From: an uncultured Candidatus Saccharibacteria bacterium
GTDB lineage: Bacteria > Patescibacteriota > Minisyncoccia > Phycocordibacterales > DATGWK01
Direction: 5' to 3'
NCBI GenBank assembly: GCA_964428845.1
Contig: CAYRZH010000002.1
Location: 6,924-70,923 of the forward strand
Length of the DNA stretch: 64,000 bases
In this document: piece after piece, positions 12,671 to 55,918 of the stretch
Layout of the letters: each line of letters starts with the position of its first letter
Position numbering within the stretch: position 1 is the stretch's first letter
Notes under the pieces: model-generated
What the model saw: the letters and a program-made list of their open reading frames with translations, nothing else
Told to the model about the DNA's origin: nothing
Database searches by the model: none
Program-made: the position numbers and the translations under genes

Positions 12671-14180
12671 ATAAATCTCTCAATATCTGAATCTTTGCAC
12701 CAAGGCTATTGAGTCGCTTGATGATATCTTCGTAGCCACGATTGATACTGTAAATATTTCGTAGCACCGAGGTGCCCGAAGCCGCGAGCATACCGATAAG
12801 GATAATTGCGGCGGGGCGAAGGGCTGGCGGGCAAATGACCTCTGCCGCCTTGAGCTTTGTCGGACCGGTGATATAGATGCGATGTGGGTCGGCAAGTAGT
12901 GTGTCGGCGCCGAGTTTGTCGAGCTCTTTGTAGTGTATGGCGCGTTTCTCATAGACCCAGTCGTGTATAAAGGTGGTACCTTTGGCTTGGGTGGCGATCA
13001 CCGCGAAAAATGGAAGATTGTCTATGTTTAGTCCTGGATATGGTCGTGCCTCGATCTTTTCCTCGAGAGCCACGAGTTCGCTTGGTGATGTCTTGATATC
13101 TACTAGATTGGTACGTTCATTTAAGGCTTTATAACTTTTTATAATTTTATATTTAAAACCCATCTTCTCGAGTTTGAGCAGTTCGAGTTCTAGAAAATCA
13201 ATAGGACAGCGGCGAATGGTTATGCTCGACTTGGTCACTGCTGCCACGGCGATAAAAAACATGGACTCGATCGGATCCTCGCTCACATAATACGTGATCG
13301 GCTGGTCTATCACTTCTTTACCATGGATAGTTATTGTCGTTGTGCCTATACCTTCTATCTTCACGCCCAATTTTTCTAAAAAAAAGCAGACTTCTTGGCC
13401 CATGTAGTTGGCAGAAGCAAACTTGATGACAGTTTTTCCCGGGATCTTGGCGGCGGCGATGATGGTATTTTCGGTAACTGTGTCACCAGACTCGTAGAGC
13501 ACGATATAGTTGGGTTTGAGTGCATCTCTCTTCACCTCATAATGTTTGGAGGTGGTTTTTATATCCACCCCAAACTTTTCTAGGGCAAAAACATGAGGCT
13601 GTATAGTCCTAGAACCAAGTCTACACCCGCCAGCCTGGGGGAGTTTAAAACTTTTCGAGTTATGTATTAGGGAGCCGATAAGCATGATAATGCTTCTAGT
13701 TTTCTCTGCGGCTTCTGTGTTTATCTTTTTTATATCAATATTTTTAGGTGGTTTTATCTCGAGATCAGCACCACTCCATTTTGCCGATACGCCCATGCTC
13801 TCGAAGACCTCTATCATCCTGCGAACTTCTTCTATGCGAGGAACATTTTTTAAGATTGTTTTGTTTTTGTTTAAAAGGGAAGCGGCAAGAAGACCCATGG
13901 TGCCGTTTTTTGAAGTTTTTGTGACGATCTCGCCGGAAAGTTTTCTCCCGCCATCTATTTTTACATTTATTGCGCCACGAGAAATATTTAGAATATCCTT
14001 GTTCAACACAGAGCTGATCTTTGAGAGTGTCTCCGTGCTTAGGTTCTGCTCACCCTTCTCGATACGAGCAATGACACTTTGGGTTGTTCCGAGTGCTTTA
14101 CCAAACTCTTTCTGGGTGATACCACGCTCTTCTCGGAGGGTATGTATAAGTTTGCCGATATGTGCGAGCTGACTTTTCAT
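12669..14180 (-). CDS. murA: UDP-N-acetylglucosamine 1-carboxyvinyltransferase with an N-terminal XRE-type helix-turn-helix domain (HTH-MurA fusion)
   Basis: The N-terminal ~75 aa (LIHTLREERGITQKEFGKALGTTQSVIARIEKGEQNLSTETLSKISSVL) is an XRE HTH. It continues in one frame into a MurA N-terminus (KNGTMGLLAASLL..NVP) and a full MurA body. Confidence 0.8.
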   Translation of the reverse strand: MKSQLAHIGKLIHTLREERGITQKEFGKALGTTQSVIARIEKGEQNLSTETLSKISSVLNKDILNISRGAINVKIDGGRKLSGEIVTKTSKNGTMGLLAASLLNKNKTILKNVPRIEEVRRMIEVFESMGVSAKWSGADLEIKPPKNIDIKKINTEAAEKTRSIIMLIGSLIHNSKSFKLPQAGGCRLGSRTIQPHVFALEKFGVDIKTTSKHYEVKRDALKPNYIVLYESGDTVTENTIIAAAKIPGKTVIKFASANYMGQEVCFFLEKLGVKIEGIGTTTITIHGKEVIDQPITYYVSEDPIESMFFIAVAAVTKSSITIRRCPIDFLELELLKLEKMGFKYKIIKSYKALNERTNLVDIKTSPSELVALEEKIEARPYPGLNIDNLPFFAVIATQAKGTTFIHDWVYEKRAIHYKELDKLGADTLLADPHRIYITGPTKLKAAEVICPPALRPAAIILIGMLAASGTSVLRNIYSINRGYEDIIKRLNSLGAKIQILRDL

Positions 14181-15807: not shown

Positions 15808-16518
15808 GTGGAAACTTTAAAGAGAATCTATAGGGAAACATCCACTTTGCACCACGCCTGCCTTCTTTTGGGAGAAAGCGACTCACTTCTTAAAAAATTA
15901 GTTGATTTTCTAGAAGATGAAACCTCTTTTCGTTCTCGCGGCAATCCAGACTTCTTCCAAATTTCTCTCGATGTCTGCGGCATCGACGAAGCTCGCATGC
16001 TCAAAGATAGAGCTTTGATGAGGCCTATTGGGGATATCAAGATAGTGATTGTTTCCTTTAACTCTATAACCACTGAAGCCCAAAATTCTCTCTTGAAGAT
16101 TTTTGAAGAACCTTTGGGTCAGACCCATTTTTTTGTTATCGCTCCCAACAAAGAAATATTTCTCGATACGTTATTATCAAGATTTTTTGTTGTTGATGGT
16201 GAACTAGACGGCAGTACTGACAGAAGTAAAATGGATAGTGTAGCCGAATCATTCTTGAAGTCATCTCCAAAAGACAGGATCTCTCAAGTCGCTAGCATGA
16301 TAGAAAAAAAGGATAAAACTGAAGTCGTTCGGTTTCTAAACTCCCTCGAAGGTTTGATATCCAAAAGTCTAAAAAAAGATGGGCCATCAGAGAGTTTGGT
16401 AAACATTTCAGAAGAGATACTTCGTTCAAAGAGTTTCCTCTACGATCGTTCTCCATCACTCAAGATGATTCTCGAACATTTATCTTGTATTATACCTATA
16501 TCCAATAAATCCAAATGA
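15808..16518 (+). CDS. holB: DNA polymerase III delta-prime subunit-like (clamp-loader) protein
   Basis: AAA+ clamp-loader-like N-domain (HHACLLLGE, DEARML..IVSFNSITTEAQNSLLKIFEEP). Confidence 0.65.
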   Translation: METLKRIYRETSTLHHACLLLGESDSLLKKLVDFLEDETSFRSRGNPDFFQISLDVCGIDEARMLKDRALMRPIGDIKIVIVSFNSITTEAQNSLLKIFEEPLGQTHFFVIAPNKEIFLDTLLSRFFVVDGELDGSTDRSKMDSVAESFLKSSPKDRISQVASMIEKKDKTEVVRFLNSLEGLISKSLKKDGPSESLVNISEEILRSKSFLYDRSPSLKMILEHLSCIIPISNKSK

Positions 16519-19712: not shown

Positions 19713-20018
19713 GTGCTCAAGCCACAAGTCAGAAGGGATTCTGACAACGGTTTCATAAAGGCCGTTGTTGGGAAAGTTCGTGATAATGGCAAAGGTGTAT
19801 TTGCAGTCGCCTACCTACAGAATGGTGAAACCCACCCAAATATTTCTGCTGGAGAAAGCATCACGTTTTCTCTAGACGATTGGGGGGGGAGGCTCCAACC
19901 GCGCGTTGGACAAGTTGTTCTGTTGGGGGATGTTCAGTGTTTTGCCAAGGGATGGCGTGCATTGTCTGCACGCCCCGTCACACTCGAGCCACAAGCCACA
20001 GCCACAAGAAAGGGGTAG
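19713..20018 (+). CDS. hypothetical protein (101 aa), first gene of the GHKL operon
   Basis: GTG at 19713 with an AAGGGA RBS; the C-terminus EPQATATRKG is encoded by the 30-bp direct repeat. Confidence 0.5.
   Translation: MLKPQVRRDSDNGFIKAVVGKVRDNGKGVFAVAYLQNGETHPNISAGESITFSLDDWGGRLQPRVGQVVLLGDVQCFAKGWRALSARPVTLEPQATATRKG
19984..20013 (+). repeat. 30-bp direct repeat DR1 (TCGAGCCACAAGCCACAGCCACAAGAAAGG)
   Basis: Identical copy at 20808-20837; each copy encodes a C-terminal EPQATATRK and supplies the RBS of the next gene. Confidence 0.8.
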
Positions 20019-20020
20019 TT

Positions 20021-20848
20021 ATGCAGAGGAAAGTCAACAGGGGTTCAACGGCAGAATGTCTCAAGGTTTTTTCGGACGAGAATCGCTTCAATGTTACCAA
20101 CATAGCGCGGTGTCGCGTTCGCAATCAAGTCTGTACGCTTCTTAGGATATCAGCCTCGACTGGTCATGCTTGGTTTGCCAGGCAGATTCTGCCGACTGGT
20201 GTAAACATGTTCAAGTTGCAACTTCTTCTCGAAGTTTGTGGCTTTGAAATCAAAGAGCGGCAGAATCTAACTCCTCTGTCTCGCGCTCTTGCTGATCAGG
20301 TGGCCCTGAATGTTCTTTCGGTTGGAAGAGCAGCCTCATTCATTGGGTCAGATGAAGACAAGATTGTCGCGCTCGCGTCTGGTCGTGAAGGAGCCAGTCC
20401 AGATCGGATCTCGAGAACGACCGAATTAGTAGAGATGGAAAAGCCGGCGGCGGAATCAAGAATGGAATTTTTCCGTCAGTCCCTGAAAAAGTTTGGCGTA
20501 GTTTTTGCACAGGAAGCACCTTCGCAGGAGACAGTTCGTGTCGACGCAGATATGCAAGTGCCTACGTCGACTTTGTCACCATCGGCACCACCCTTGGCGA
20601 GCGACACTGATCGGACGCATGCTGTTCATGCGCTCGCGCATCTAGTTTTGGGGATCAAGCACCTTGCCGCAAGAGTGGCCTCCGACGAGTTTACTCCAGC
20701 GGAAAGAGATATGCTTCGTCGTATGACAGGTAATGGCCTTTCCAATGCGATCTTCGATCTTTCGAACATCTTTCACCGCTTGTGCGGTGAGAGAGCTCGG
20801 AGTCGAATCGAGCCACAAGCCACAGCCACAAGAAAGGAGCCGTTGTGA
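20021..20848 (+). CDS. hypothetical protein (275 aa), second gene of the GHKL operon
   Basis: The ATG at 20021 is 2 nt after the gene-1 stop, with an AAAGGGG RBS; the C-terminus EPQATATRKEPL comes from DR2. Confidence 0.55.
   Translation: MQRKVNRGSTAECLKVFSDENRFNVTNIARCRVRNQVCTLLRISASTGHAWFARQILPTGVNMFKLQLLLEVCGFEIKERQNLTPLSRALADQVALNVLSVGRAASFIGSDEDKIVALASGREGASPDRISRTTELVEMEKPAAESRMEFFRQSLKKFGVVFAQEAPSQETVRVDADMQVPTSTLSPSAPPLASDTDRTHAVHALAHLVLGIKHLAARVASDEFTPAERDMLRRMTGNGLSNAIFDLSNIFHRLCGERARSRIEPQATATRKEPL
20808..20837 (+). repeat. 30-bp direct repeat DR2
   Basis: Identical to DR1. Confidence 0.8.
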
Positions 20849-22566
20849 GGAATTTCACACCGCCGTCTACTGCTGGCAGACACACCGCCATTAAGTTCAA
20901 TCAGGGCCAGGCCCTCTTGCATCTTGCTGGCATGTACCCGACTTTGCATGAGGTTATCCTCGAGCTTGTCCAAAACGCCCTAGACAAGGACGTGCGGGCA
21001 ACTCGGATCTGGATCGTTGTCAATCAAAAGACTCGGCACATCGCGGTGCGCGACAATGGTGCCGGAACAACGCTTGATAGATTCAACGAGGCACTTGCGT
21101 CAGTCGCGGAACCAGGCCGCAAGGGCGAGGGGAGTCTGGGACAGTTTGGTATCGGTCTCATTTCTCCTCTTGGTAAGTGTAAAGAGTTTGTTTTTCTCTC
21201 CTGCCCAGCACCTCATATGTACGGGTTCCAGGAGTGGACGTTTAGAACCGATCACATCACTGCGCAAAGACAGGATCTGATGATCCCTCTACGAGCTCGA
21301 GATGATCTCACGCTTCAGGATAGACCTCCTCCAGGAAAAACCCGGCTCCAGTGGCGATCGGAAATGAGCCTTACTGGTATCACGACTGATGGTGTCGTTG
21401 GTCAGATTTCCATGGACGCTCTTATCGGGGGTATTCAAGACCGCTATGCCACCGTTATGCGGCGTAACAAGACTATCATTTCGGTGGAGATCACCGACAA
21501 GGATGGTAGTGTCGAACGGCGGCCCAATGTGACGGCTTCAGACTTTCGAGGTCGTGCTCTCGAAGAGTGGACGTATGTAGAGCCCTCTGCTGGCAGGACC
21601 ACATTTCGTTTGTTTGTTGCTCCCAAGTCCAAAACGGGACGAAGCGGGCGGGTGGTTGTGGGAATCATGGGGAATGATTTCAGAATTCCACTCCACTATG
21701 TCGTCCGATCTGCGACCGCTCTTCTTGGCGAAGAAGTGGTTACGGCACTGTCGTCTGGTCTTTTCGAGGGAGAAATCATCTCTGAGTGTGCCAAACTGCA
21801 CCCAAGTCGCAGAAGTCTTGTCAAAGACGATGCTTTCATTGGCTTCTGTTTGGCTATCGAGGAGTGGTATAACCAAGTTGGGTCAAAGTGTGTTGATGAG
21901 ATTCGTCAGTCCCGACAGGAACAACGGTTCCAGGATCTGGGACTGCGATCGATGAAGGTGATCGAGGGTCTGCTCAATAATCCCGCGCTTTCATCGCTCC
22001 GGGCGGTTATCGGTTCTTTTGGCCGAGGCACGGTCAGTAGTGCTCACCATGACCCCACGAAGAAGGTCGTAGGTGAGCAGGAAAAGCCAGCCTTGTCGGT
22101 TCAGGGAGTCTTTGCCACGCCGAGTGGAGAAGACCCGGAAGATCCTGACGACGGCGGAGGATCTTCTGCCGAGAAGCCGCCTCGGCCGCCTCTCACTGTC
22201 ACAGGTCCTAGAGGTCCAAGACGGAAGATCGTGAGAAGCTCGAGCTTCGGCTTGCAGTTTGCTCATGAGCCAGTTGAGGGTTCTCCCGACTTGTGGAATC
22301 TTGACACAAGAGAGGGTGTACTGACCTTCAACATCCGGCATCCACTCTGGGTTGCCTGTGATGTGAGGGACGTTCCACTCATGAAACTGCAGGAGTGGGT
22401 GGCGATACAGGCGTTGACGCTTGAGATGATGCCTCCGGCCCTGCGCGTTCCACAACGGCTTATTTTGGATGAGATCACCGTTTCGATGGTTTCCTGGATT
22501 CTTGGTGCTGACAAAGCGAGGGGTTCTATCCCGAACCCGAAGGGTAAGAGGAGACCCTCGCAGTAA
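20845..22566 (+). CDS. GHKL/Bergerat-fold ATPase (HATPase_c_3; MORC/Hsp90/MutL-like N-domain) with a ~440-aa uncharacterised C-terminal region
   Basis: N-box ELVQNALDKD, G1 box VRDNGAGT and G2 box GSLGQFGIGLIS are present in canonical spacing. A GTG start overlaps the gene-2 stop (GTGA) and is preceded by AAAGGAG. Confidence 0.65.
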   Translation: MRNFTPPSTAGRHTAIKFNQGQALLHLAGMYPTLHEVILELVQNALDKDVRATRIWIVVNQKTRHIAVRDNGAGTTLDRFNEALASVAEPGRKGEGSLGQFGIGLISPLGKCKEFVFLSCPAPHMYGFQEWTFRTDHITAQRQDLMIPLRARDDLTLQDRPPPGKTRLQWRSEMSLTGITTDGVVGQISMDALIGGIQDRYATVMRRNKTIISVEITDKDGSVERRPNVTASDFRGRALEEWTYVEPSAGRTTFRLFVAPKSKTGRSGRVVVGIMGNDFRIPLHYVVRSATALLGEEVVTALSSGLFEGEIISECAKLHPSRRSLVKDDAFIGFCLAIEEWYNQVGSKCVDEIRQSRQEQRFQDLGLRSMKVIEGLLNNPALSSLRAVIGSFGRGTVSSAHHDPTKKVVGEQEKPALSVQGVFATPSGEDPEDPDDGGGSSAEKPPRPPLTVTGPRGPRRKIVRSSSFGLQFAHEPVEGSPDLWNLDTREGVLTFNIRHPLWVACDVRDVPLMKLQEWVAIQALTLEMMPPALRVPQRLILDEITVSMVSWILGADKARGSIPNPKGKRRPSQ

Positions 22567-35037: not shown

Positions 35038-36357
35038 ATGAAAAAAATATTCAAAAAAATAGTTGTTTGGATTCTTACAGCCGAAGCTCATTTGGTACTC
35101 AAAAAATACAAGCCGAAAATAATTGCAGTTACTGGTAGCGTCGGGAAGACGTCGACCAAAGATGCTATCTACACCATTCTTGCTAGTAAGGCCCATGTAC
35201 GGAAGAGCCAGAAAAGTTTCAATAGTGAGATAGGGGTGCCCCTGACAATTTTGGGTTTAGAGAACGCCTGGAGCAGTCCTCTTGGGTGGCTACACAACTT
35301 TATAGAGGGTTTGATTCTAATAATCTTGCCAAGTATTTATCCAAAAATTGTTATTCTGGAAATAGGTGCAGATAGACCTGGTGATATAGAAAAGATTGGC
35401 AGGTGGATTCACCCGAATATTGTAGTAATAACAAGGTTGAGCAAAGTACCTGTCCACGTCGAGTTTTTTTCTTCCCCTGAAGATGTTAAAAGGGAAAAAG
35501 AATTTCTGGCAAAAGCTCTAAAAAAGGAAGGAATATTAATTTTGAACGCCGATGATGAAGATGTGATGTCCTTTGCGAAGAATGGAAATAGTAATGGAAA
35601 GAATGCTCGTCTCGTCACATATGGTTTTAAAAATAATGCCAAAGTGAAGGCCTCTGAATATAAAATTATTTATGAAAACCGAGACAGTATCAAATTTCCG
35701 ATAGGGATTAGTTACAAGGTGAACTTTGAAACAACGATCTCGGAGGTAACCGTTGGGGGTACGGTGGGTATGCAAAATGCTTATACAAGCCTCGCAGCGA
35801 TCGCTGCAGGTGTTTCGAGTGGATATGACCTTCCAAAGCTTGTAGGTATTTTGAGTGAACATAAAACACCTCCGGGCAGAATGAAAATAATTGATGGATT
35901 GAATAACTCCATTATTATCGATGATTCCTACAATTCTTCTCCTGTGGCGCAGAGTGAAGCCTTGGAAGCGTTACGTGACTTAGATGCACATGGACGCAAA
36001 ATAGTAATACTGGGTGATATGCTCGAGCTGGGGCCATTCTCTGTAGGTGAGCACAAATTGGTCGGAGAGAAGGTGGCAGAAGTAGCATCAAACCTGATCA
36101 CCGTAGGGGTAAGGGCTAGGGCTATCCGAGATGCGGCAATCAATGCTGGCATGAGCGCGAGTTCCACTATTTCCTTTGAGGATTCACGACAAGCTGGAGA
36201 ATATGCCAAATCTCTGATTGGTCCAGGAGATGTAGTTCTCGTGAAGGGCTCTCAAGGAGGTATTCGTATGGAAAGGGCCGTAGAGGCACTTATGGCTAGG
36301 CCGGAGGAAAAAGAAGAGCTACTTGTTCGTCAGGAGCCCGAGTGGCAGAAAAGATAA
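35038..36357 (+). CDS. murF: UDP-N-acetylmuramoyl-tripeptide--D-alanyl-D-alanine ligase
   Basis: Mur ligase P-loop IAVTGSVGKTSTK and Mur ligase middle and C-terminal domains. Confidence 0.8.
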   Translation: MKKIFKKIVVWILTAEAHLVLKKYKPKIIAVTGSVGKTSTKDAIYTILASKAHVRKSQKSFNSEIGVPLTILGLENAWSSPLGWLHNFIEGLILIILPSIYPKIVILEIGADRPGDIEKIGRWIHPNIVVITRLSKVPVHVEFFSSPEDVKREKEFLAKALKKEGILILNADDEDVMSFAKNGNSNGKNARLVTYGFKNNAKVKASEYKIIYENRDSIKFPIGISYKVNFETTISEVTVGGTVGMQNAYTSLAAIAAGVSSGYDLPKLVGILSEHKTPPGRMKIIDGLNNSIIIDDSYNSSPVAQSEALEALRDLDAHGRKIVILGDMLELGPFSVGEHKLVGEKVAEVASNLITVGVRARAIRDAAINAGMSASSTISFEDSRQAGEYAKSLIGPGDVVLVKGSQGGIRMERAVEALMARPEEKEELLVRQEPEWQKR

Positions 36358-36438: not shown

Positions 36439-36510
36439 GGCCCTATCGTCTAACGGTTAGGACGGGAGCTTCTCAAGCTCCAAATCCGGGTTCGATTCCC
36501 GGTAGGGTCA
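36439..36510 (+). tRNA. tRNA-Glu(CUC)
   Basis: GGCCCTA TC GTCT AACGGTTA GGAC G GGAGC TTCTCAA GCTCC AAAT CCGGG TTCGATT CCCGG TAGGGTC A; a Glu-like D-arm. Confidence 0.75.
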
Positions 36511-36650
36511 GAGATTTGAGCGGGCCGAGAAGCTCTGGCCCTAAGCGGGCCGACTTCTCGGCCCGCGTCCGGGAATCGAACGCCGGAGCGATGTTTCGCC
36601 AGTAGGCGAAACCGCGAGGCGGTGCCCAGCCCGAGGCTAGGGCGGCGAGC
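36511..36650. other. GC-rich hairpin-dense segment following the tRNA (includes an inverted T-arm-like fragment)
   Basis: Perfect hairpins GCGGGCCGA cttc TCGGCCCGC (36546-36567) and GTTTCGCC agta GGCGAAAC (36592-36615); GTCCGGGAATCGAACGCC is an inverted partial copy of the tRNA T-arm. Confidence 0.4.
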
Positions 36651-36681
36651 CGAGAGGCGCGGGAGATTCCCGGTAGGGTAA
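36651..36681 (+). repeat. direct repeat DR-a containing a copy of the tRNA-Glu 3' end (att-like)
   Basis: CGAGAGGCGCGGGAGATTCCCGGTAGGGTAA; 14 of its bases (ATTCCCGGTAGGGT) match the tRNA 3' end. Confidence 0.6.
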
Positions 36682-36760
36682 TAGATGCTAAATATTAATT
36701 TGATCATTTGTGTTATATTCTCATAAGAAACACCTTAGCCATTACAGGAGGGAGTAATAA

Positions 36761-37060
36761 ATGAATATTATCAGAGCATGCTGTTTACTTTACCTTTGTA
36801 TTTGTATACCTTCAGACCTAAACCCCATGCTATGGATTGCAGGTAAATTCCTGGAGAGAAATCCCTTGCTACTCTCTATACATCTCTTGCTGTACCTGGC
36901 TTCAGGGATTTTCTTTTGTATAACAATTGGCTATGAAAAAAGAACTGCCAGAAAAAGAATAAGGCTAGGACTCTGTCCTGCGTGTGGTTATGATTGGCGA
37001 GTCACACCTCGAAGATGTCCTGAATGCGGAAGAATTCCGAGGCGCTACAGAATTGTCTGA
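36761..37060 (+). CDS. hypothetical small membrane protein with a C-terminal CxxC..CxxC zinc ribbon (99 aa)
   Basis: ATG preceded by a GGAGGGAG RBS; two TM helices; C-terminal CPACGYDWRVTPRRCPECG; located between DR-a and DR-b. Confidence 0.5.
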   Translation: MNIIRACCLLYLCICIPSDLNPMLWIAGKFLERNPLLLSIHLLLYLASGIFFCITIGYEKRTARKRIRLGLCPACGYDWRVTPRRCPECGRIPRRYRIV

Positions 37061-37073
37061 GCGTCTTTTTAGT

Positions 37074-37104
37074 CGAGAGGCGCGGGAGATTCCCGGTAGG
37101 GTCA
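37074..37104 (+). repeat. direct repeat DR-b (second copy, 30/31 identical to DR-a)
   Basis: CGAGAGGCGCGGGAGATTCCCGGTAGGGTCA; 17 nt are identical to the tRNA-Glu 3' end including the discriminator. Confidence 0.6.
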
Positions 37105-37149
37105 TGCGAGCAAAAAATCACGGCCTTTTGCTCATATTAGATAAAACAA

Positions 37150-37190
37150 AACCCCGTCCAAACAAGCGCGGGGCTTGTCTGAAACGGGGT
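37150..37190 (-). terminator. intrinsic terminator for gene 37201-37779
   Basis: Minus-sense CCCCGTTTCAGACAAG ccccgcg CTTGTTTGGACGGGG followed by TTTTGTTTT. Confidence 0.6.
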
Positions 37191-37200
37191 GAATGAATGA

Positions 37201-37779
37201 TCAGATGCGGCGGAAGAAGCTCAAGAAGTTGGTGATTCTCCTCACCACACTACGCTGGCTCAATCTCCCACGGAGTTCCCTGATCGTTGCCAACGCTCCA
37301 CCCAACTGCTGTTGGGTTTGCATGAGCTCGTTTTCGAGTTGCTTACGAGATTTGCCGTTCTGGCGTCCCTCGTAGCTCTCCTCGGGACGGATCGCGCCGG
37401 TCTTCACCATGTGCAGAATCGCCCTGAGGTCTTCCATGTTGTCGGCGATGATCCTGAGCGAGTACACCGGCAATTCGCGCCTGGAGTTTCCGCGTTCTCC
37501 CGGCGTGAGCTCGCATACTGCACTCCCATGCCGATAGACGCCGGATTCTCTGGGGCCCATTCGTGGGATTTCCTCGTGGCACGAGATTCTTACCACCAGA
37601 TTCTTCAGCGCGTCGGGGATGTCGTTGTCTTCTCTCCATGAGATATAAGGGGTAGAATCTCTATCGTACACATACTCACCAAAGATAGTTGTCTGATCTG
37701 CTGTGCCGTTCCTGCCGGGCTGACTCTTGTACTCGGGGAGCTCACGAACCTCGCCGCTTAGGTACACGTTGATGGACAT
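37201..37779 (-). CDS. hypothetical protein (192 aa), GC-rich, C-terminal coiled-coil
   Basis: The internal ATG at 37779 has an AAAAGGAG RBS; about 58% GC; no family recognised. Confidence 0.5.
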   Translation of the reverse strand: MSINVYLSGEVRELPEYKSQPGRNGTADQTTIFGEYVYDRDSTPYISWREDNDIPDALKNLVVRISCHEEIPRMGPRESGVYRHGSAVCELTPGERGNSRRELPVYSLRIIADNMEDLRAILHMVKTGAIRPEESYEGRQNGKSRKQLENELMQTQQQLGGALATIRELRGRLSQRSVVRRITNFLSFFRRI

Positions 37780-38089
37780 GACTTTCTCCTTTTGTCGCTC
37801 TGGAATCGGTAGGGTTACTGGCCCAGTCCGTTCCACAAGTCGATCTGGTATCATGGTAGCATATACTATTACTTATGTCAATAGTTTTATATTTTCCAAA
37901 TAACCCCTGAAATTAGGCTTTCTAGCTTCTGTAAAATAAAATCTTTCCGAGGCTAGGGTGGCGAGTAGACAAATATCTATAGTAGGTAGAGAATTTGGGT
38001 AAAGGTCGGTCGTCACTACTCCTCTTTAAGATACCCGCAGTTGCGGGCCAAAAAACGACGGTAAAGATTAGGATTAACAACAAAAGATT

Positions 38090-38230
38090 ATGGCAACACA
38101 AAACCACGCCAACCCGATTGACAGAAAAAGATTCCTACGAAAAGAAGGCCATCTGACTCGTCCACCACGCCTCGAAGGTGTAGTTAAAGAAAAAATGATG
38201 AAAGCAGTTAAGAAGAAGCCAAATGTTTAA
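38090..38230 (+). CDS. possible small basic protein (46 aa) overlapping the start of the PRTase gene
   Basis: ORF MATQNHANPIDRKRFLRKEGHLTRPPRLEGVVKEKMMKAVKKKPNV found by eye (below the ORF-track cutoff); weak RBS. Confidence 0.25.
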   Translation: MATQNHANPIDRKRFLRKEGHLTRPPRLEGVVKEKMMKAVKKKPNV

Positions 38231-38846
38231 AGACCGAAGAGAGGCAGGACGCAAACTGGCAGAAAAACTTGAAGCCTACCGTGGTGAAAACGGACTGATA
38301 CTTGCATTACCGCGAGGCGGGGTAGTTCTTGGGCATGAGATTGCCCATGCTCTTTCGATGCCGCTTGATATCATAACAACTCGAAAGATAGGACACCCAT
38401 CGAACCCAGAATATGCTATCGGAGCAGTAGATCAGGATGGTGTGACTATCCTAAATGAATCGGAAATCGCTTCAGTTGATAAGGAGTGGCTAAGAGACGA
38501 GGTCGAAAAACAAAAGGCGGAAGCGGTCCGCCGCAACGATTTGTATCGCAAACAAAGTAGAGCCCTTGAGGTTGGCGATAAAATCATAATCATCGTAGAT
38601 GACGGCATCGCCACTGGTTTTACCATGCGGCTCGCTGTGAAAGTGATCAAAAACAGAAACCCCAAAAGGGTAATTGTGGCGGTACCTGTTGCATCTCAAG
38701 AAACTATACAAAGGCTCAAAAAAGAGGGAGCGGATGAAATAATTGTACTTGAACCACCAGAGGAATTTATGGGAGCTGTCGGTGCGCATTACCAGCAATT
38801 TGACCAAGTTGATGATGAAGAAGTTATTAATCTGTTAAATTTATAA
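38223..38846 (+). CDS. phosphoribosyltransferase-family protein (COG1926-like)
   Basis: PRTase fold motif IIIVDDGIATGFT. Confidence 0.7.
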   Translation: MFKDRREAGRKLAEKLEAYRGENGLILALPRGGVVLGHEIAHALSMPLDIITTRKIGHPSNPEYAIGAVDQDGVTILNESEIASVDKEWLRDEVEKQKAEAVRRNDLYRKQSRALEVGDKIIIIVDDGIATGFTMRLAVKVIKNRNPKRVIVAVPVASQETIQRLKKEGADEIIVLEPPEEFMGAVGAHYQQFDQVDDEEVINLLNL

Positions 38847-38851
38847 TTTTT

Positions 38852-39082
38852 ATGAATCAAAAAAATATTTTGAAAATAGTTTTCATTCTCTCGCTTTTGG
38901 GGACCATTTTTTCTGGGACACTGTCATATATGGAGATTTTTAGTTCAACAGCAACGTGTCCTGCTCTCGGTGCTCCAGGTACGATTCTCGGATATCCCGC
39001 TTGTGTCTATGGTTTCGGCATGTTTATTCTACTCACGATAATCTCGGCGATCGGCCTCTGGGGCAATAAAAAACAAGAATAA
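38852..39082 (+). CDS. hypothetical small membrane protein with paired Cys (CPALG..PAC)
   Basis: Two TM helices; immediately follows the PRTase gene. Confidence 0.4.
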   Translation: MNQKNILKIVFILSLLGTIFSGTLSYMEIFSSTATCPALGAPGTILGYPACVYGFGMFILLTIISAIGLWGNKKQE

Positions 39083-39179
39083 AATTTCCTAAGGAATAAA
39101 TCTTGGCACGCCCTTGCAAAAAGCCGCTATATTGGCGTAGACTTCCTAGTGGATCGAATCAAACCAAGGGAGACTTACC

Positions 39180-39470
39180 ATGGAGCAAATGTCCCGAGAC
39201 GAATGGGAGTGGTTGCAGAAGCATGCCCGGATTGAGAATGGTGTTTACGTCTGCAAGCAGACGGGCGCTACGATAGCGACAGCCTTGGTTCCCAGATCAC
39301 TTTGGTTTAGGGGGTTTATGGGTGGTCCTGGCGAAGTGGAGTCGATACTGCATGTTTGTTGTCCATCCTGTCAGCCAGGCAAAGTCCCGCCTGAAAGAGG
39401 GACGAGCATCTACGAAGATGATATCGTCACAGTCGATGTGAATCCTGTTTTTCCAGCCGCTACTAGCTAG
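39180..39470 (+). CDS. hypothetical protein (96 aa), GC-rich
   Basis: AAGGGAGA RBS; Cys cluster VCK..HVCCPSCQ; about 57% GC. Confidence 0.45.
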   Translation: MEQMSRDEWEWLQKHARIENGVYVCKQTGATIATALVPRSLWFRGFMGGPGEVESILHVCCPSCQPGKVPPERGTSIYEDDIVTVDVNPVFPAATS

Positions 39471-39474
39471 CGGT

Positions 39475-39514
39475 CTTTTTTTGTACAAAAAAAGAGCAGG
39501 ATTGATTCCTGCCC
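39475..39514. terminator. bidirectional terminator between the convergent GC-rich genes
   Basis: CTTTTTTTGTACAAAAAAAG palindrome plus a GCAGGA ttgat TCCTGC hairpin. Confidence 0.5.
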
Positions 39515-39521
39515 TCGATGG

Positions 39522-39893
39522 TCAAACAACCCCCCGCATTCTCTCCTCGCGAGTAAGTCCAGGCCAGGGGAGGGACTTAGGTACTCGCCGCCTCTTGGGC
39601 GTGGCACTACTTGTCACCCTTGACGCACGAACTACGCCCATCTTCTCTCGCTCGCGCAAAAGCTCACGCTTCTGTGCTGCCCGTTTGCCGAAGAACTTGC
39701 CCATCTCGGCCATACAGGCGGCGATCGTTTCCGGCGACCGAATGTTATGGTCTCGGATGGTTCGGAAAAGAAGGGCCCTGAAATCTGGACGTTCCTTCTT
39801 TCCGCTCCGATGAAGGCTCATCTCGGCGGCATATCGCGTTGAAGCCTTGTCGATAAGCATCCGCACCACGGGGTCAACTGGTCTTTCTTCCAC
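39522..39893 (-). CDS. hypothetical basic protein (123 aa), GC-rich
   Basis: GTG start with an AAAGGAG RBS; Arg/Lys-rich C-terminus. Confidence 0.4.
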   Translation of the reverse strand: MEERPVDPVVRMLIDKASTRYAAEMSLHRSGKKERPDFRALLFRTIRDHNIRSPETIAACMAEMGKFFGKRAAQKRELLREREKMGVVRASRVTSSATPKRRRVPKSLPWPGLTREERMRGVV

Positions 39894-39974
39894 TCCGATA
39901 CTCCTTTATCCAGAGGTGAATGATTTTGTTCTTTCTATTGCAATTATACCACTTACCATGGCATTGTCAAACGA

Positions 39975-40427
39975 TTATCCCCACAACCCCTCCACAACCG
40001 CCTTCACATCGTCTCCTGCCGCTTTTCCTTTGAGCTCTTTCATTACTGCACCCATAAGCATTCCGGCCTTAGACTTATCCGCCACACCCATTTCGTCTTT
40101 CTTTTTTTTAGCAACAACCGCAATTTCCTCGCGGCTCATCATTTTCGGACTGTATTCTTCAATTATCTTTAATTCAGCAGTCTCCGCTGCTACAAGATCC
40201 TCCCTCGCACCTTTCTTAAACTGCTCGATTGAGTCCTTTCTTTGTTTTATTGCTCTTTGGATTACTACGAGGGCGTCAGCATCAGATATTGTCTCGTCCG
40301 GCTTTCTCATTTTTGCCACGAGTTCATTTGTGAATGCGGCGATGAGGCCACGCAGTACCGTCACGCGGACGCTATCCTTTGCAAGCATCGCTTTCTTCAT
40401 ATCCTCACGAATTTTTTCTTGGATCAT
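39975..40427 (-). CDS. GatB/YqeY domain-containing protein
   Basis: IQEKIREDMKKAMLAKDSVRVTVLRGLIAAF matches the YqeY N-terminus. Confidence 0.75.
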   Translation of the reverse strand: MIQEKIREDMKKAMLAKDSVRVTVLRGLIAAFTNELVAKMRKPDETISDADALVVIQRAIKQRKDSIEQFKKGAREDLVAAETAELKIIEEYSPKMMSREEIAVVAKKKKDEMGVADKSKAGMLMGAVMKELKGKAAGDDVKAVVEGLWG

Positions 40428-40500
40428 ATTTGTTTCGCGCTTTGTGTTTTTAATTTTTCTTACTCTATCACATTTCGAAGCTCGTTGATATAATGGGCGC

Positions 40501-41571
40501 ATGATTTATGGTCTCATTATCGGCGGCATAGTGGTCGTGATCCTCATAAATGCACTTTTTTTCTGGTTTATCACCCAGAGGCTCGGTAAAAGGGGAGAGG
40601 AACCAGCGAAAAATGATGCAGGCCTCAACTTACTCCTCCAGCAAATGAATGAGCTCTCGAGAAACATGGACCTCAAAATGGGAGAGACGAGCCGCCAAGT
40701 CCACGACTCTATGCGTTCCCAATTTAGCGAGTCTGCCAAGCTCATCCGCGAAGTGACCCAAGGACTTACCAAGCTCGACGAGACCAACAAGCAGGTGGTC
40801 TCTTTTGCAGACCAACTTCAGTCACTCCAAGACATTTTGAAAAACCCAAAGCAGCGTGGAATCCTCGGCGAGTATTATCTCGAGGCCCTCCTTAAAAATG
40901 TTCTTCCTCCAGGAAGCTACCAGATGCAGTATCCGTTTAAAGACGGAACCATTGTGGACGCTGTGGTTTTTGTAAAAGACAAGATCATACCTATTGACTC
41001 TAAGTTTTCTCTTGAAAACTACAACCGTCTTGTCGAAGAGAGGGACCCAGTCGAAAAAGAAAAACTAGAAAAAGCTTTTCGCGCCGATCTCAAGCTCCGT
41101 ATTGACGAAACATCTAAGTATGTAAAGCCGGCGGAAAATACCATGGACTTTGCCTTCATGTTTATTCCTCACGAAGCCATATACTATGATCTTCTCGTGG
41201 CTCAAGTCGGAGCAGTAAAAGTAAATACCCGCGACCTCATCGACTATGCATTCAAAGATCGTCGAGTCATCATCGTCTCGCCGACATCCTTCCTGGCGTA
41301 CCTCCAGACAGTTCTTCAGGGCCTGAAGGCTCTGCAGATAGAGGAGTCAGCCAAAGAGATACTTGGGCGTGTGGAAGTCCTAGGGAAGCACCTGGGGGCC
41401 TATGAGCAGTTTATGGGGTCCCTGGGTAGCTCGCTCGGTACTACCGTCAATCATTACAACAGAGCTCATAAAGAACTCCAGAAGATAGACAAGGATGTGC
41501 TGAAAATAACGGGAATTTCGGCGGGGGTAGAAGCCGCTCTCATAGAAAAACCCGAGGCGGGGGAGAGCTAA
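40501..41571 (+). CDS. rmuC: DNA recombination protein RmuC
   Basis: N-terminal TM helix and coiled-coil plus the RmuC core (GILGEYYLEALL, FMFIPHEAIY). Confidence 0.8.
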   Translation: MIYGLIIGGIVVVILINALFFWFITQRLGKRGEEPAKNDAGLNLLLQQMNELSRNMDLKMGETSRQVHDSMRSQFSESAKLIREVTQGLTKLDETNKQVVSFADQLQSLQDILKNPKQRGILGEYYLEALLKNVLPPGSYQMQYPFKDGTIVDAVVFVKDKIIPIDSKFSLENYNRLVEERDPVEKEKLEKAFRADLKLRIDETSKYVKPAENTMDFAFMFIPHEAIYYDLLVAQVGAVKVNTRDLIDYAFKDRRVIIVSPTSFLAYLQTVLQGLKALQIEESAKEILGRVEVLGKHLGAYEQFMGSLGSSLGTTVNHYNRAHKELQKIDKDVLKITGISAGVEAALIEKPEAGES

Positions 41572-54844: not shown

Positions 54845-55918
54845 ATGACGATTGTGGCGAGATCCCAGGCCGTTCTCCCGGTAAATGCCGAAAGTTCAAA
54901 CGACCTCCTCATCTCTGAATTTGCCCGCTATTTGGGTAAGACCCAGAAAAGAAGTCCTCATACAGTGATCAATTATTGCCGTGATGTGAAATCATTGGCA
55001 GGTGTTCTTTCGGACGAATTTGGAGAGGATGCCAGGCTCGCAACCATGTCAGCCGATGAGCTGAATGTATGCCTCGGTATTTTCAGGAACAATCTGGGTT
55101 ACAAAACAAATACCGTAGCAAGGAAGGTCTGCGCCCTAAAGGCTTTCTTCAAGTGGTTTGCGGAACATAGAGATGATGGGGTAGAAACGGGCCCTGTCGG
55201 ATTCCTCTCTGCACTTCGCGCGAAGAGACACAGAGAAACAATTTCCAGATTTCTGACTCTTTCCCATGTAACCAAACTGATGCGGTTTGGTGTAAATACT
55301 GGAATTGTATGCAGGGCGCGAGATACCTTGGCGATAAGACTCTTCCTGTTTACAGGAATTAGCTGTCGTGAACTTGTTGCTATCAATCTGGGTGATTTCA
55401 CGTTGGAGCGGGACGCAATTACTCGTAGGGTGGTGAAGATCGTCAGTGTCAGAGTCGGCCAAGCTCACACAATCTCACTCGACAGGCCCGAAATTCAAGA
55501 AGCATTGGTCGGCTACCTTAATCTCGTTTACCCCAAGTTTTTAGGGCAACCGAGTGTTGGCAGTAGTCATAGCTCTCTTCGCTCTCTTCCTCTTATGGTC
55601 AGTGGTAAGAATAGCAAAGTGAGGATAAAGGGCAGGTCTATAAGGAGGAATCTCCAAAAAATCGGGCGCAAACTCGGCATTAGCCAATCAGGCGTAGAGC
55701 TTGGTCCGACATCTCTTAGGCATCGGTTCGTCATCGATCGTCTGAAAGACCGCACTCCTCGAGCCGCAATATCTCAACTACTGGGCAAGCGACACGCTCA
55801 CTGTATATGGTGGCTAAATCGACTGGCTGCCGACATCGTCAATGCCGGTGCCCTGCAGGACAGTTATGGGGAAGGGGAAGTGGCCAAGCCACAAAATCAC
55901 CCTAAGCAAGTAAAGTGA
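54845..55918 (+). CDS. tyrosine recombinase/phage-integrase-family protein (catalytic Tyr not at the canonical position), GC-rich
   Basis: SAM-like core-binding N-domain (FARYLGKTQKRSPHTVINYCRDVKSL), box I TGISCRE, and box II SLRHRF..LLGKRHA. The HxxxxxxxxxY spacing is absent; about 53% GC. Confidence 0.55.
   Translation: MTIVARSQAVLPVNAESSNDLLISEFARYLGKTQKRSPHTVINYCRDVKSLAGVLSDEFGEDARLATMSADELNVCLGIFRNNLGYKTNTVARKVCALKAFFKWFAEHRDDGVETGPVGFLSALRAKRHRETISRFLTLSHVTKLMRFGVNTGIVCRARDTLAIRLFLFTGISCRELVAINLGDFTLERDAITRRVVKIVSVRVGQAHTISLDRPEIQEALVGYLNLVYPKFLGQPSVGSSHSSLRSLPLMVSGKNSKVRIKGRSIRRNLQKIGRKLGISQSGVELGPTSLRHRFVIDRLKDRTPRAAISQLLGKRHAHCIWWLNRLAADIVNAGALQDSYGEGEVAKPQNHPKQVK

Follow-up and report, generated by a model that had tools for sequence, protein, structure and literature searches.

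Among known kinds of loci, the one described here comes closest to the tRNA-anchored islands that serial integration builds up. In the tycheposon islands of Prochlorococcus, serial integrations leave partial tRNAs behind, and integrase-free remnants occur (doi 10.1101/2020.12.28.424599). We analyzed a stretch of 64,000 nucleotides (nt) of contig CAYRZH010000002.1 from an uncultured Candidatus Saccharibacteria bacterium (hereafter, the window, to whose first letter all positions refer), in which an intact tRNA-Glu(CUC) gene, the sole tRNA of the window (36439–36510, + strand; found by ARAGORN and matched by the Rfam tRNA model at 63 bits), stands at one border of variable DNA. Like the Islander-type and tycheposon islands, this locus combines an intact edge tRNA with partial copies of its 3′ end further in, and it carries tandem cargo of foreign composition that varies between relatives; integrase-free remnants are known among those islands too. 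In contrast to them, the locus has neither an integrase nor a remnant of one, its cassettes are single genes of 0.4 to 0.9 kb, its repeats hold sequence that is not derived from the tRNA, the tRNA end always has an inverted counterpart, and the first “partial tRNA” sits inside a conserved, covarying structured module. We favor, with moderate confidence, the reading that this module is a tRNA mimic, that the cargo beyond it (36684 to ~39950) was acquired horizontally in the form of cassettes, and that the 3′ end of the module serves as the site of a recombinase acting in trans.

The module, or unit (36511–36683, + strand; ~170 nt), consists of a first hairpin (HP0), a 5′ strand for the T stem, two further hairpins (HP-A and HP-B), and a copy of X, the last 17 nt of tRNA-Glu(CUC) (GATTCCCGGTAGGGTCA, + strand). 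HP0 (36520–36566, +) is GC rich and has a perfect stem of 13 base pairs (bp), in which 36520–36532 pairs with 36554–36566; no U-tract follows it, and no terminator was called there. Next comes X′ (CCGGGAATCGAAC; 36569–36581, +), the exact complement of the T loop and of the 3′ strand of the T stem of the tRNA, that is, a 13-nt exact inverted copy of the T arm matching 36490–36502. HP-A (36581–36621, +) is a conserved hairpin flanked by CGGAGC and GCGAG that comprises helices 1 to 3, all of whose pairs covary, and HP-B (36623–36664, +) is a conserved hairpin domain (helix 4) with an apex related to GAGYGACGRCGA of the relatives. The 3′ closing strand of the module is copy 2 of the tRNA 3′ end (GATTCCCGGTAGGGTAA; 36665–36681, +), with which the first 9 nt of X′ pair. 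GC content within the module is 0.64 to 0.71, versus ~0.43 for its surroundings, and the fold energy of the stretch, −102.9 kcal/mol, lies at z = −6.0 relative to shuffled sequences. A preliminary description of the locus had already reported GC-rich perfect hairpins and an inverted T-arm fragment behind the tRNA, and both are present as described.

The DNA 3′ of the tRNA-Glu genes of relatives shows a recurring series of elements: GAA..CGGAGC, an HP-A with a variable stem, GCGAG..GGGGTC, and an HP-B with the apex GAGYGACGRCGA. A covariance model (R1) built from seven relatives, with the window excluded, matches the window at 36577–36646 (E = 7.6e-4 in 638 kb), and with filters off it recovers the window unit at E = 1.8e-5 in 15 kb (30–45 kb of the window). 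Across the 20 loci searched, R1 detected 17 units in 16 loci (the window unit and 16 others); at least 11 Patescibacteria loci have the module behind tRNA-Glu, and six metagenome contigs contain it too. The arrangement of copy 2 recurs in the loci that we number L020, L026, L007, and L003 and in metagenome contigs L070–L075; HP0 occupies the same position as the HP0 of L070, L074, and L003; and, over 119 nt, metagenome units L071 and L073 share 82% identity with the window region. In the 17-hit alignment, pairing is observed in 91% of cells (versus 36 to 47% with the partners slid), a count that is inflated because this alignment was fitted to the model structure, which weakens the case for the reading that we favor; 28 of the 31 pairs show double changes, and the covariation score is 0.645, versus ~0.10. 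The same architecture is kept, with compensatory changes, in genomes whose MurF proteins are 44 to 56% identical. A second group of units (L004, L006, L012, L027, L030, and L031) has HP-A and HP-B with no clear tRNA-derived ends. The conservation of the hairpins and of copy 2 in so many genomes indicates that together they form one conserved, covarying structured module and not the remnant of an integration.

No second copy of the unit was found, either in the 64-kb window with speed filters or in 30–45 kb with filters off, and other copies are restricted to tRNA-Glu-type loci; the single R1 match in the window and this restriction do not fit a miniature inverted-repeat transposable element (MITE) or a palindromic REPIN repeat. 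In Rfam 15, only the tRNA itself is matched: the units gave nothing meaningful at E values up to 5 to 10 or by gathering scores, with permissive thresholds returning only microRNA-type noise on the hairpins. Literature searches turned up no description of the module. Among viral contigs, four unit motifs gave chance matches at most, R1 matched nothing in the 112 viral stretches searched, and a search of the phage database left the unit unmatched. Several candidate identities were rejected by inspection of the sequence: a minus-strand tRNA pseudogene (there is no T stem or anticodon arm); transfer-messenger RNA (tmRNA), RNase P RNA, and signal recognition particle RNA (unfitting motifs and no Rfam match); a retroelement primer-binding site (the complement ends before the discriminator and CCA); and a hammerhead ribozyme (the core is absent). 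By way of a separate observation, L004 contains at 16019–16108 (− strand) a weak unit-like match (E ~5e-4), inverted and at the far end of its defense cargo, just before yqeY.

The form of the complete unit is known from metagenomes, where a scan with GCGGGAGATTCCCGGTAGGGT returned six contigs (L070–L075); the units of L070–L073 are 72 to 82% identical to the window unit where BLAST aligns them. ARAGORN called no tRNA in these six stretches, several of which are cut short, such that an upstream tRNA is possible for some. A complete unit (L070, L072, and L074) reads 5′-G(U)GACCCUA-[HP0]-GU-CCGGGAAUC-GAAC..-[HP-A]-[HP-B]-..GCGGGA-GAUUCCCGG-UAGGGUCAC-3′, and its ends pair as an acceptor-like stem of 7 to 9 bp plus the 5-bp T stem of tRNA-Glu lengthened by 4 bp. 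In this pairing (P1), all 9 of the T-stem pairs and 8 or 9 of the 9 acceptor pairs are formed in each of the three units, a discriminator base is present, HP0 stands at the place of the D and anticodon arms, and HP-A and HP-B stand in place of the T loop. Because the 3′ strand of the module repeats the tRNA end and its 5′ strand repeats the complement of that end, complete copies are predicted to imitate the acceptor and T stems of tRNA-Glu when folded. The strands of the unit carry their own genome's version of the tRNA in five genomes (the window, L003, L007, L020, and L026), and the 5′ strand is a perfect complement of the tRNA even in those genomes with a decayed 3′ copy (L003 and L007). 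The window unit comes without the 5′ acceptor strand, the place of which is occupied by the tRNA's own end, and because this strand is missing it has only the T-stem part of the mimic. As an aside, the minimum-energy fold of the tRNA plus the unit (36439–36690) departs from a cloverleaf with the unit behind it: the T arm of the tRNA pairs with X′, and its 5′ acceptor strand pairs with copy 2, such that the tRNA, X′, and copy 2 segments could compete if the tRNA and the unit were cotranscribed.

We infer that the module is most likely an RNA transcribed in the same sense as the tRNA. G-U pairs outnumber A-C pairs by 27 to 8, so the tRNA-sense strand would be the folding strand; a promoter-like site lies upstream of the unit in L072, and an intrinsic-terminator-like site lies ~25 nt after the unit in L074. 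Units stand in tandem in L070 and L072. The known tRNA-like structures (the tRNA-like domain of tmRNA, mascRNA, and the bacterial Y-RNA-like YrlA) share with the module the paired ends that form an acceptor-like stem on a T stem, the discriminator, and the placement of a large foreign domain inside a tRNA frame. In the module, the insertion is placed not at the anticodon position but at the T stem, which has no T loop and instead runs on as the helix that carries the insertion; the module further differs in lacking a D arm, in mimicking one specific neighboring tRNA, and in matching no Rfam model.

Beyond the module, the tRNA end recurs once more. The 15-mer GATTCCCGGTAGGGT occurs exactly three times in the window, always on the + strand, with starts at 36494 (the tRNA 3′ end), 36665, and 37088; three occurrences were reached in 0 of 100 shuffles. 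The last two belong to a direct repeat of 35 nt, of which 33 positions are identical and 29 nt are exact: repeat B (36648–36682, +), made up of the 3′ arm of HP-B and copy 2, and repeat B′ (37071–37105, +), which contains copy 3 (37088–37104; 17 of 17 nt identical to the tRNA end). The near-identical direct repeats ending in copies of the tRNA 3′ end that were reported earlier are thus real, at a length of 35 nt, and they run well past the 17 nt derived from the tRNA into module-specific sequence. A second pair of repeats, overlooked in the preliminary description, consists of A (36631–36649, +), within HP-B and directly before B, and A′ (37947–37965, +), which is 18/19 identical to A and lies on the far side of a gene for a protein of 192 amino acids (aa). 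B and B′ flank cassette 1 (36684–37070, +; 387 bp, GC content ~0.40), and A′ and B′ flank the cassette of the 192-aa gene. As had been described, the AT-rich DNA between B and B′ encodes a 99-aa membrane protein with a C-terminal CPACG..CPECG zinc-ribbon motif; its open reading frame (ORF; 36761–37060, +) has a strong Shine-Dalgarno sequence, AGGAGG, 8 nt before the ATG. Pfam zinc-ribbon matches to this protein stay below threshold, and its relatives match only the C-terminal zinc-ribbon motif.

These repeats bear on a rival explanation, that of the preliminary description, under which classical integrase-bearing elements integrated serially into the 3′ end of tRNA-Glu and then decayed, leaving copies 2 and 3 as attR scars and the hairpins as a stump. 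The X copies are indeed exact over 15 to 19 nt in the window, L020, and L026; a decayed copy of the tRNA end and its trailer follows the first cassette in L043; and tycheposons are a documented case of serial integrations with partial tRNAs left behind (doi 10.1101/2020.12.28.424599). Consistent with this view as well, viral contig L180 (IMGVR_UViG_3300028241_004056, 1–1542) starts inside a tRNA-Glu, the last 28 nt of which are identical to the tRNA of the window, and the 3′ end of a gene for a 513-aa large serine recombinase runs into this tRNA-Glu fragment, with a replication-protein-O-like phage gene next to it. Against serial integration, however, the supposed stump has the same architecture, maintained by compensatory changes, in genomes of 44 to 56% MurF identity; the unit is found in stretches without a tRNA gene, in tandem, and with the promoter-like (L072) or terminator-like (L074) site; the stretch common to B and B′ includes 18 nt of non-tRNA sequence; and the “elements” would measure only 154 and 406 bp. 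No integrase fragment was seen among the ORFs of the window or when the L180 recombinase served as a tblastn query. Copy 2 closes the module and not a span of variable DNA, whereas copy 3 does lie at a cassette border. We consider this explanation unlikely. The preliminary description had taken the tRNA gene as an integration site: gene gain and loss, and accretion with repeat scars, are supported, and the assignment of the tRNA, the hairpins, and copy 2 to attL, a decayed element, and attR is not. It had also held that repeats lying within a conserved structured RNA would speak against its reading; comparison with related genomes shows cargo that differs between the same flanks and, for the module, just such conservation and covariation.

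The evidence for a site within the module comes from the way in which its pieces are distributed. Joined together, A′ and B′ would rebuild the 3′ half of the unit, such that, as read from the sequence, they are a split, circularly permuted second copy; both breaks fall at one point of HP-B (GGCGAG^CCGAG), and the dinucleotide AG (36648–36649) is present in both halves. Pieces of the unit also border cassettes in other genomes: in L006, a 164-aa gene stands between two copies of a 53-nt HP-B-type hairpin, and L043 has, at its cassette borders, three copies of the 5′ part of the unit (acceptor complement, palindrome, and T-stem complement). Under the reading that we favor, cassettes would enter as small circles bearing a copy of the module 3′ end, each circle recombining at a fixed point in that 3′ end through a recombinase presumably encoded elsewhere and acting in trans. 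The module 3′ end, and perhaps the tRNA end too, would be the attachment site for such circles, and the module itself may be transcribed with or after the tRNA and fold as a tRNA-like RNA. The split copy would result from a reciprocal exchange between a circle of ~0.9 kb (A′B′ plus the cassette) and the chromosomal sequence ...TTTTT-AG-TAGAC...; the predicted circle junction, with A′ joined to B′, is GGTGGCGAG-TCGAGAGGCG, and the predicted empty-site junction is GCGTCTTTTTAG-TAGACAAATATC. Other multistep histories of A′ and B′ are also possible.

Integrons, together with their attC sites and clusters of attC sites lacking integrases (CALINs), resemble the locus in several respects: small cassettes of one gene each alternate with imperfect hairpin sites, whose structure is kept better than their sequence, arrays can be free of an integrase, and some sites have no cargo between them. 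This likeness suggests an alternative in which the unit is a folded single-stranded DNA site, its X′–X pairing copying the duplex of the tRNA in the role of an attC or a CTX attP, and in which a recombinase recognizing this folded structure captures cassettes beside the tRNA. The conservation of structure while stem sequences vary, the perfect tracking of each genome's own tRNA by the inverted arms even where the unit's X has decayed, the single-gene cassettes bounded by unit pieces in the window, L006, and L043, and the tandem units without intervening cargo would all fit such a site. Integrons differ from the locus, though, in that no IntI gene is found nearby here, the site copies a tRNA end, unpaired motifs are conserved, and cassettes lie in both orientations, that of the 192-aa gene having its own conserved promoter and being on the opposite strand. 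The sole integrase-like ORF of the window (54845–55918; 357 aa) lies at a distance of 18 kb, and its match to phage integrases is confined to their N-terminal SAM-like domain, with no catalytic-domain match at E values up to 0.001. The R″ and R′ boxes of attC sites have the consensus RYYYAAC/GTTRRRY. By eye, no such boxes are seen in B, B′, A′, or the HP-B modules, and RNA is the better match for the conservation of unpaired motifs and the many G-U pairs. We regard a folded-DNA site of this kind as quite unlikely; that the tRNA-Glu mimic serves for attachment and landing in an integrase-free, integron-like platform that gathers defense genes and other small genes, with the folded RNA or single-stranded DNA as substrate or guide, is likewise an improbable extension of the reading that we favor. 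The attP of CTX-type phages, which belong to the integrative mobile elements exploiting Xer (IMEX), offers a further parallel, in that inverted half-sites ~100 nt apart could refold into the target duplex and tandem arrays are formed; for the module, however, the target is a tRNA end and not dif, there are no phage genes, and folding as DNA is hypothetical.

The frame in which the cargo lies is conserved. On the left, murF (35038–36357, +; a 439-aa ORF) is a conserved backbone gene with relatives in 51 loci, mostly from Patescibacteria (best identity, 56%), by which the organism is assigned to the Patescibacteria, and the vicinity of murF and tRNA-Glu(CUC) is kept in 21 of 32 relatives scanned. 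On the right, a conserved yqeY-like gene (39975–40502, −) has tblastn matches near tRNA-Glu in 10 loci. Framed by murF, tRNA-Glu, and the module at the left and by yqeY at the right, ~36684–39950 is variable DNA with a mosaic GC content (0.33 to 0.59); for the seven ORFs at 36.7 to 39.9 kb, relatives have no homologs at the locus, whereas they do have yqeY there. The borders of 36439 to 37900 proposed earlier are thus too narrow: the islet measures ~3.4 kb and not 1.4 kb, the variable DNA on to ~39950 having been missed.

In relatives, the content of this interval changes. L004, L006, and L031, which are mutually related, have three different inserts between the same flanks: a PDC-S06/AAA_13 ATPase with an AbiV-like HEPN protein in L004, small unknown genes in L006, and an OLD/Gabija-like ATPase-TOPRIM protein in L031. 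L030 has genes for an EcoRI-type methylase, a restriction enzyme, and RhuM-family proteins, and in L001 only ~1.5 kb separates the tRNA from yqeY. No integrase was found among the relatives' cargo ORFs that were listed or scanned, these cargos being only partly annotated. Different cargos that include defense genes, set between shared flanks, make the locus a hotspot of defense and accessory genes, and the order murF/tRNA-Glu(CUC)/variable DNA/yqeY is, judging by these comparisons, conserved. The mosaic GC content and the origin of the window from a metagenome-assembled genome might raise the suspicion of an assembly or binning artefact, in which repeats caused a chimeric join of foreign GC-rich DNA. 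Such an artefact is highly improbable, as the order murF/tRNA-Glu/.../yqeY is the same in independent assemblies, comparable mosaics occur in many unrelated ones, and the repeats, at 19 to 35 nt, are below the usual k-mer collapse length.

A further explanation dispenses with a site altogether: the unit would be only an RNA (for instance, one that aids processing or stability, or a small RNA from the tRNA-Glu trailer) with no role in recombination, the cargo would be swapped by homologous recombination through murF/tRNA/unit and yqeY after DNA uptake, and B′ and A′ would stem from slippage or illegitimate recombination. The RNA-like covariation and strand bias, the lack of any recombinase linked to the site, and right cargo borders without repeats all agree with it. 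It does not account for A′ and B′ breakpoints that fall at the same position of the unit, for the recurrence of unit pieces at cassette borders in three other genomes, or for the bracketing of the same 192-aa cassette by direct repeats at an unrelated site (see below), and as a whole we think it improbable. Its component of exchange through the flanks nonetheless belongs to a set of observations that count against our preferred reading. The right cargo borders of L004, L006, and L031 carry no repeat, on which account homologous recombination via the flanks is a serious alternative, and such exchange would explain much of the variability without a site-specific step. The ORFs between 36.5 and 40 kb include no recombinase, and none is linked to the site. 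The order A-B-M1-B′-M2-A′ does not arise from a single integration into a resident module: it needs either an unrelated target 390 bp downstream or several events. Chance alone would give an overlap of 2 nt, such as the shared AG, once in 16 cases. The tRNA and the unit are separated in several relatives by a terminator-like hairpin with a T-tract, which leaves no room for a promoter. Finally, no genome of the same species with an empty site or another cassette order was found, the best MurF match being 56% identical.

Where the recombinase is concerned, the earlier statement that no integrase is adjacent holds for the neighboring ORFs. The large serine recombinase of viral contig L180, the gene of which extends into a tRNA-Glu end, has no relative in the window, where tblastn with it found nothing, and among viral contigs no relative other than the query itself was retrieved.

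Patescibacteria have tiny genomes with few recognizable mobile elements, and the locus bears on how they exchange accessory and defense genes without a linked integrase. If the module is an RNA, it represents a new class of tRNA-like RNA that is absent from Rfam; if it is a recombination site, it is a new kind of attachment (att) site. In either case, the covariance model provides a simple handle for such hotspots in thousands of uncultured genomes.

Cassette 2 (37143–37913, −) is self-contained. Its promoter (37881–37853, −; TTGACA-17-TACCAT, 10/12 with TG) is followed by a leader of ~75 nt (37852–37780, −), the 192-aa gene (37779–37201, −; GC content ~0.56), and a terminator (37190–37143, −) that is 88% identical to that of L053; the preliminary description of a GC-rich 192-aa gene with its own terminator is accurate, and the terminator is kept in the homolog. 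Leader and promoter are kept in six loci, and the cassette shares 74% nucleotide identity with L078/L079 over 37913–37286. The hairpin GAGCAAAA/TTTTGCTC (37108–37133), which lies between B′ and the cassette, is not kept in homologous cassettes. In Magasanikbacteria (L052–L056; the L057 stretch is too short), the cassette follows pnp and lies between direct repeats of ~85 nt, and in L076 it adjoins an IS30-like transposase; to judge from these placements, the 192-aa gene cassette moves horizontally. The protein has ten homologs, no Pfam or PHROGs family, no match in the phage database, and a single weak PADLOC match (LmuB, E 0.034); its AlphaFold model (predicted local distance difference test [pLDDT] score, 83) found no fold match in the PDB below E 0.1. 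The repeats around the Magasanikbacteria cassette (L052, 9790–9873 and 10767–10850; also in L053–L056) contain the hairpin CATTCCCGTGAAAGCGGGAATC, with no tRNA nearby. The leader has the consensus ATCGAC..TGG..GGACTGG.CCAG.AA.CC.ACC.GA.TC...GCGA.A.A.AAGGAGAAA (window 37780–37881, −; L053 2701–2808; L076–L079), has no Rfam match, and is possibly a cis-regulatory RNA.

Past A′, the further variable DNA (37966–39950) contains ORFs of 46, 207, 76, and 96 aa and one of 123 aa on the − strand, with GC contents within the range of 0.33 to 0.59 given above. The 207-aa product (38223–38846), a phosphoribosyltransferase (PRTase), is weakly matched in PADLOC by PRTase_III-A and ShosT (E 3.9e-5 and 1.9e-4, respectively) and might be a PRTase of the defense or toxin type and not a metabolic one. 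Elsewhere in the window, an accessory-looking gene pair (19880–22566) is shared with the contig of L074 (9885–12298 in reverse-complement coordinates); this pair ends in a 573-aa HATPase_c_3 protein that resembles a 577-aa protein of L074, the N terminus having been compared by eye. The upstream side of tRNA-Glu also shows duplications in relatives. In L026 (12213–12231 and 12313–12330, with an insertion of 81 nt between the two pieces) and in L015 (3556–3579), the intact tRNA-Glu gene is preceded by partial copies of its own 5′ end, and in L030 a 48-nt direct repeat (98% identical; 13073–13120 and 13412–13459) upstream of tRNA-Glu brackets 339 nt.

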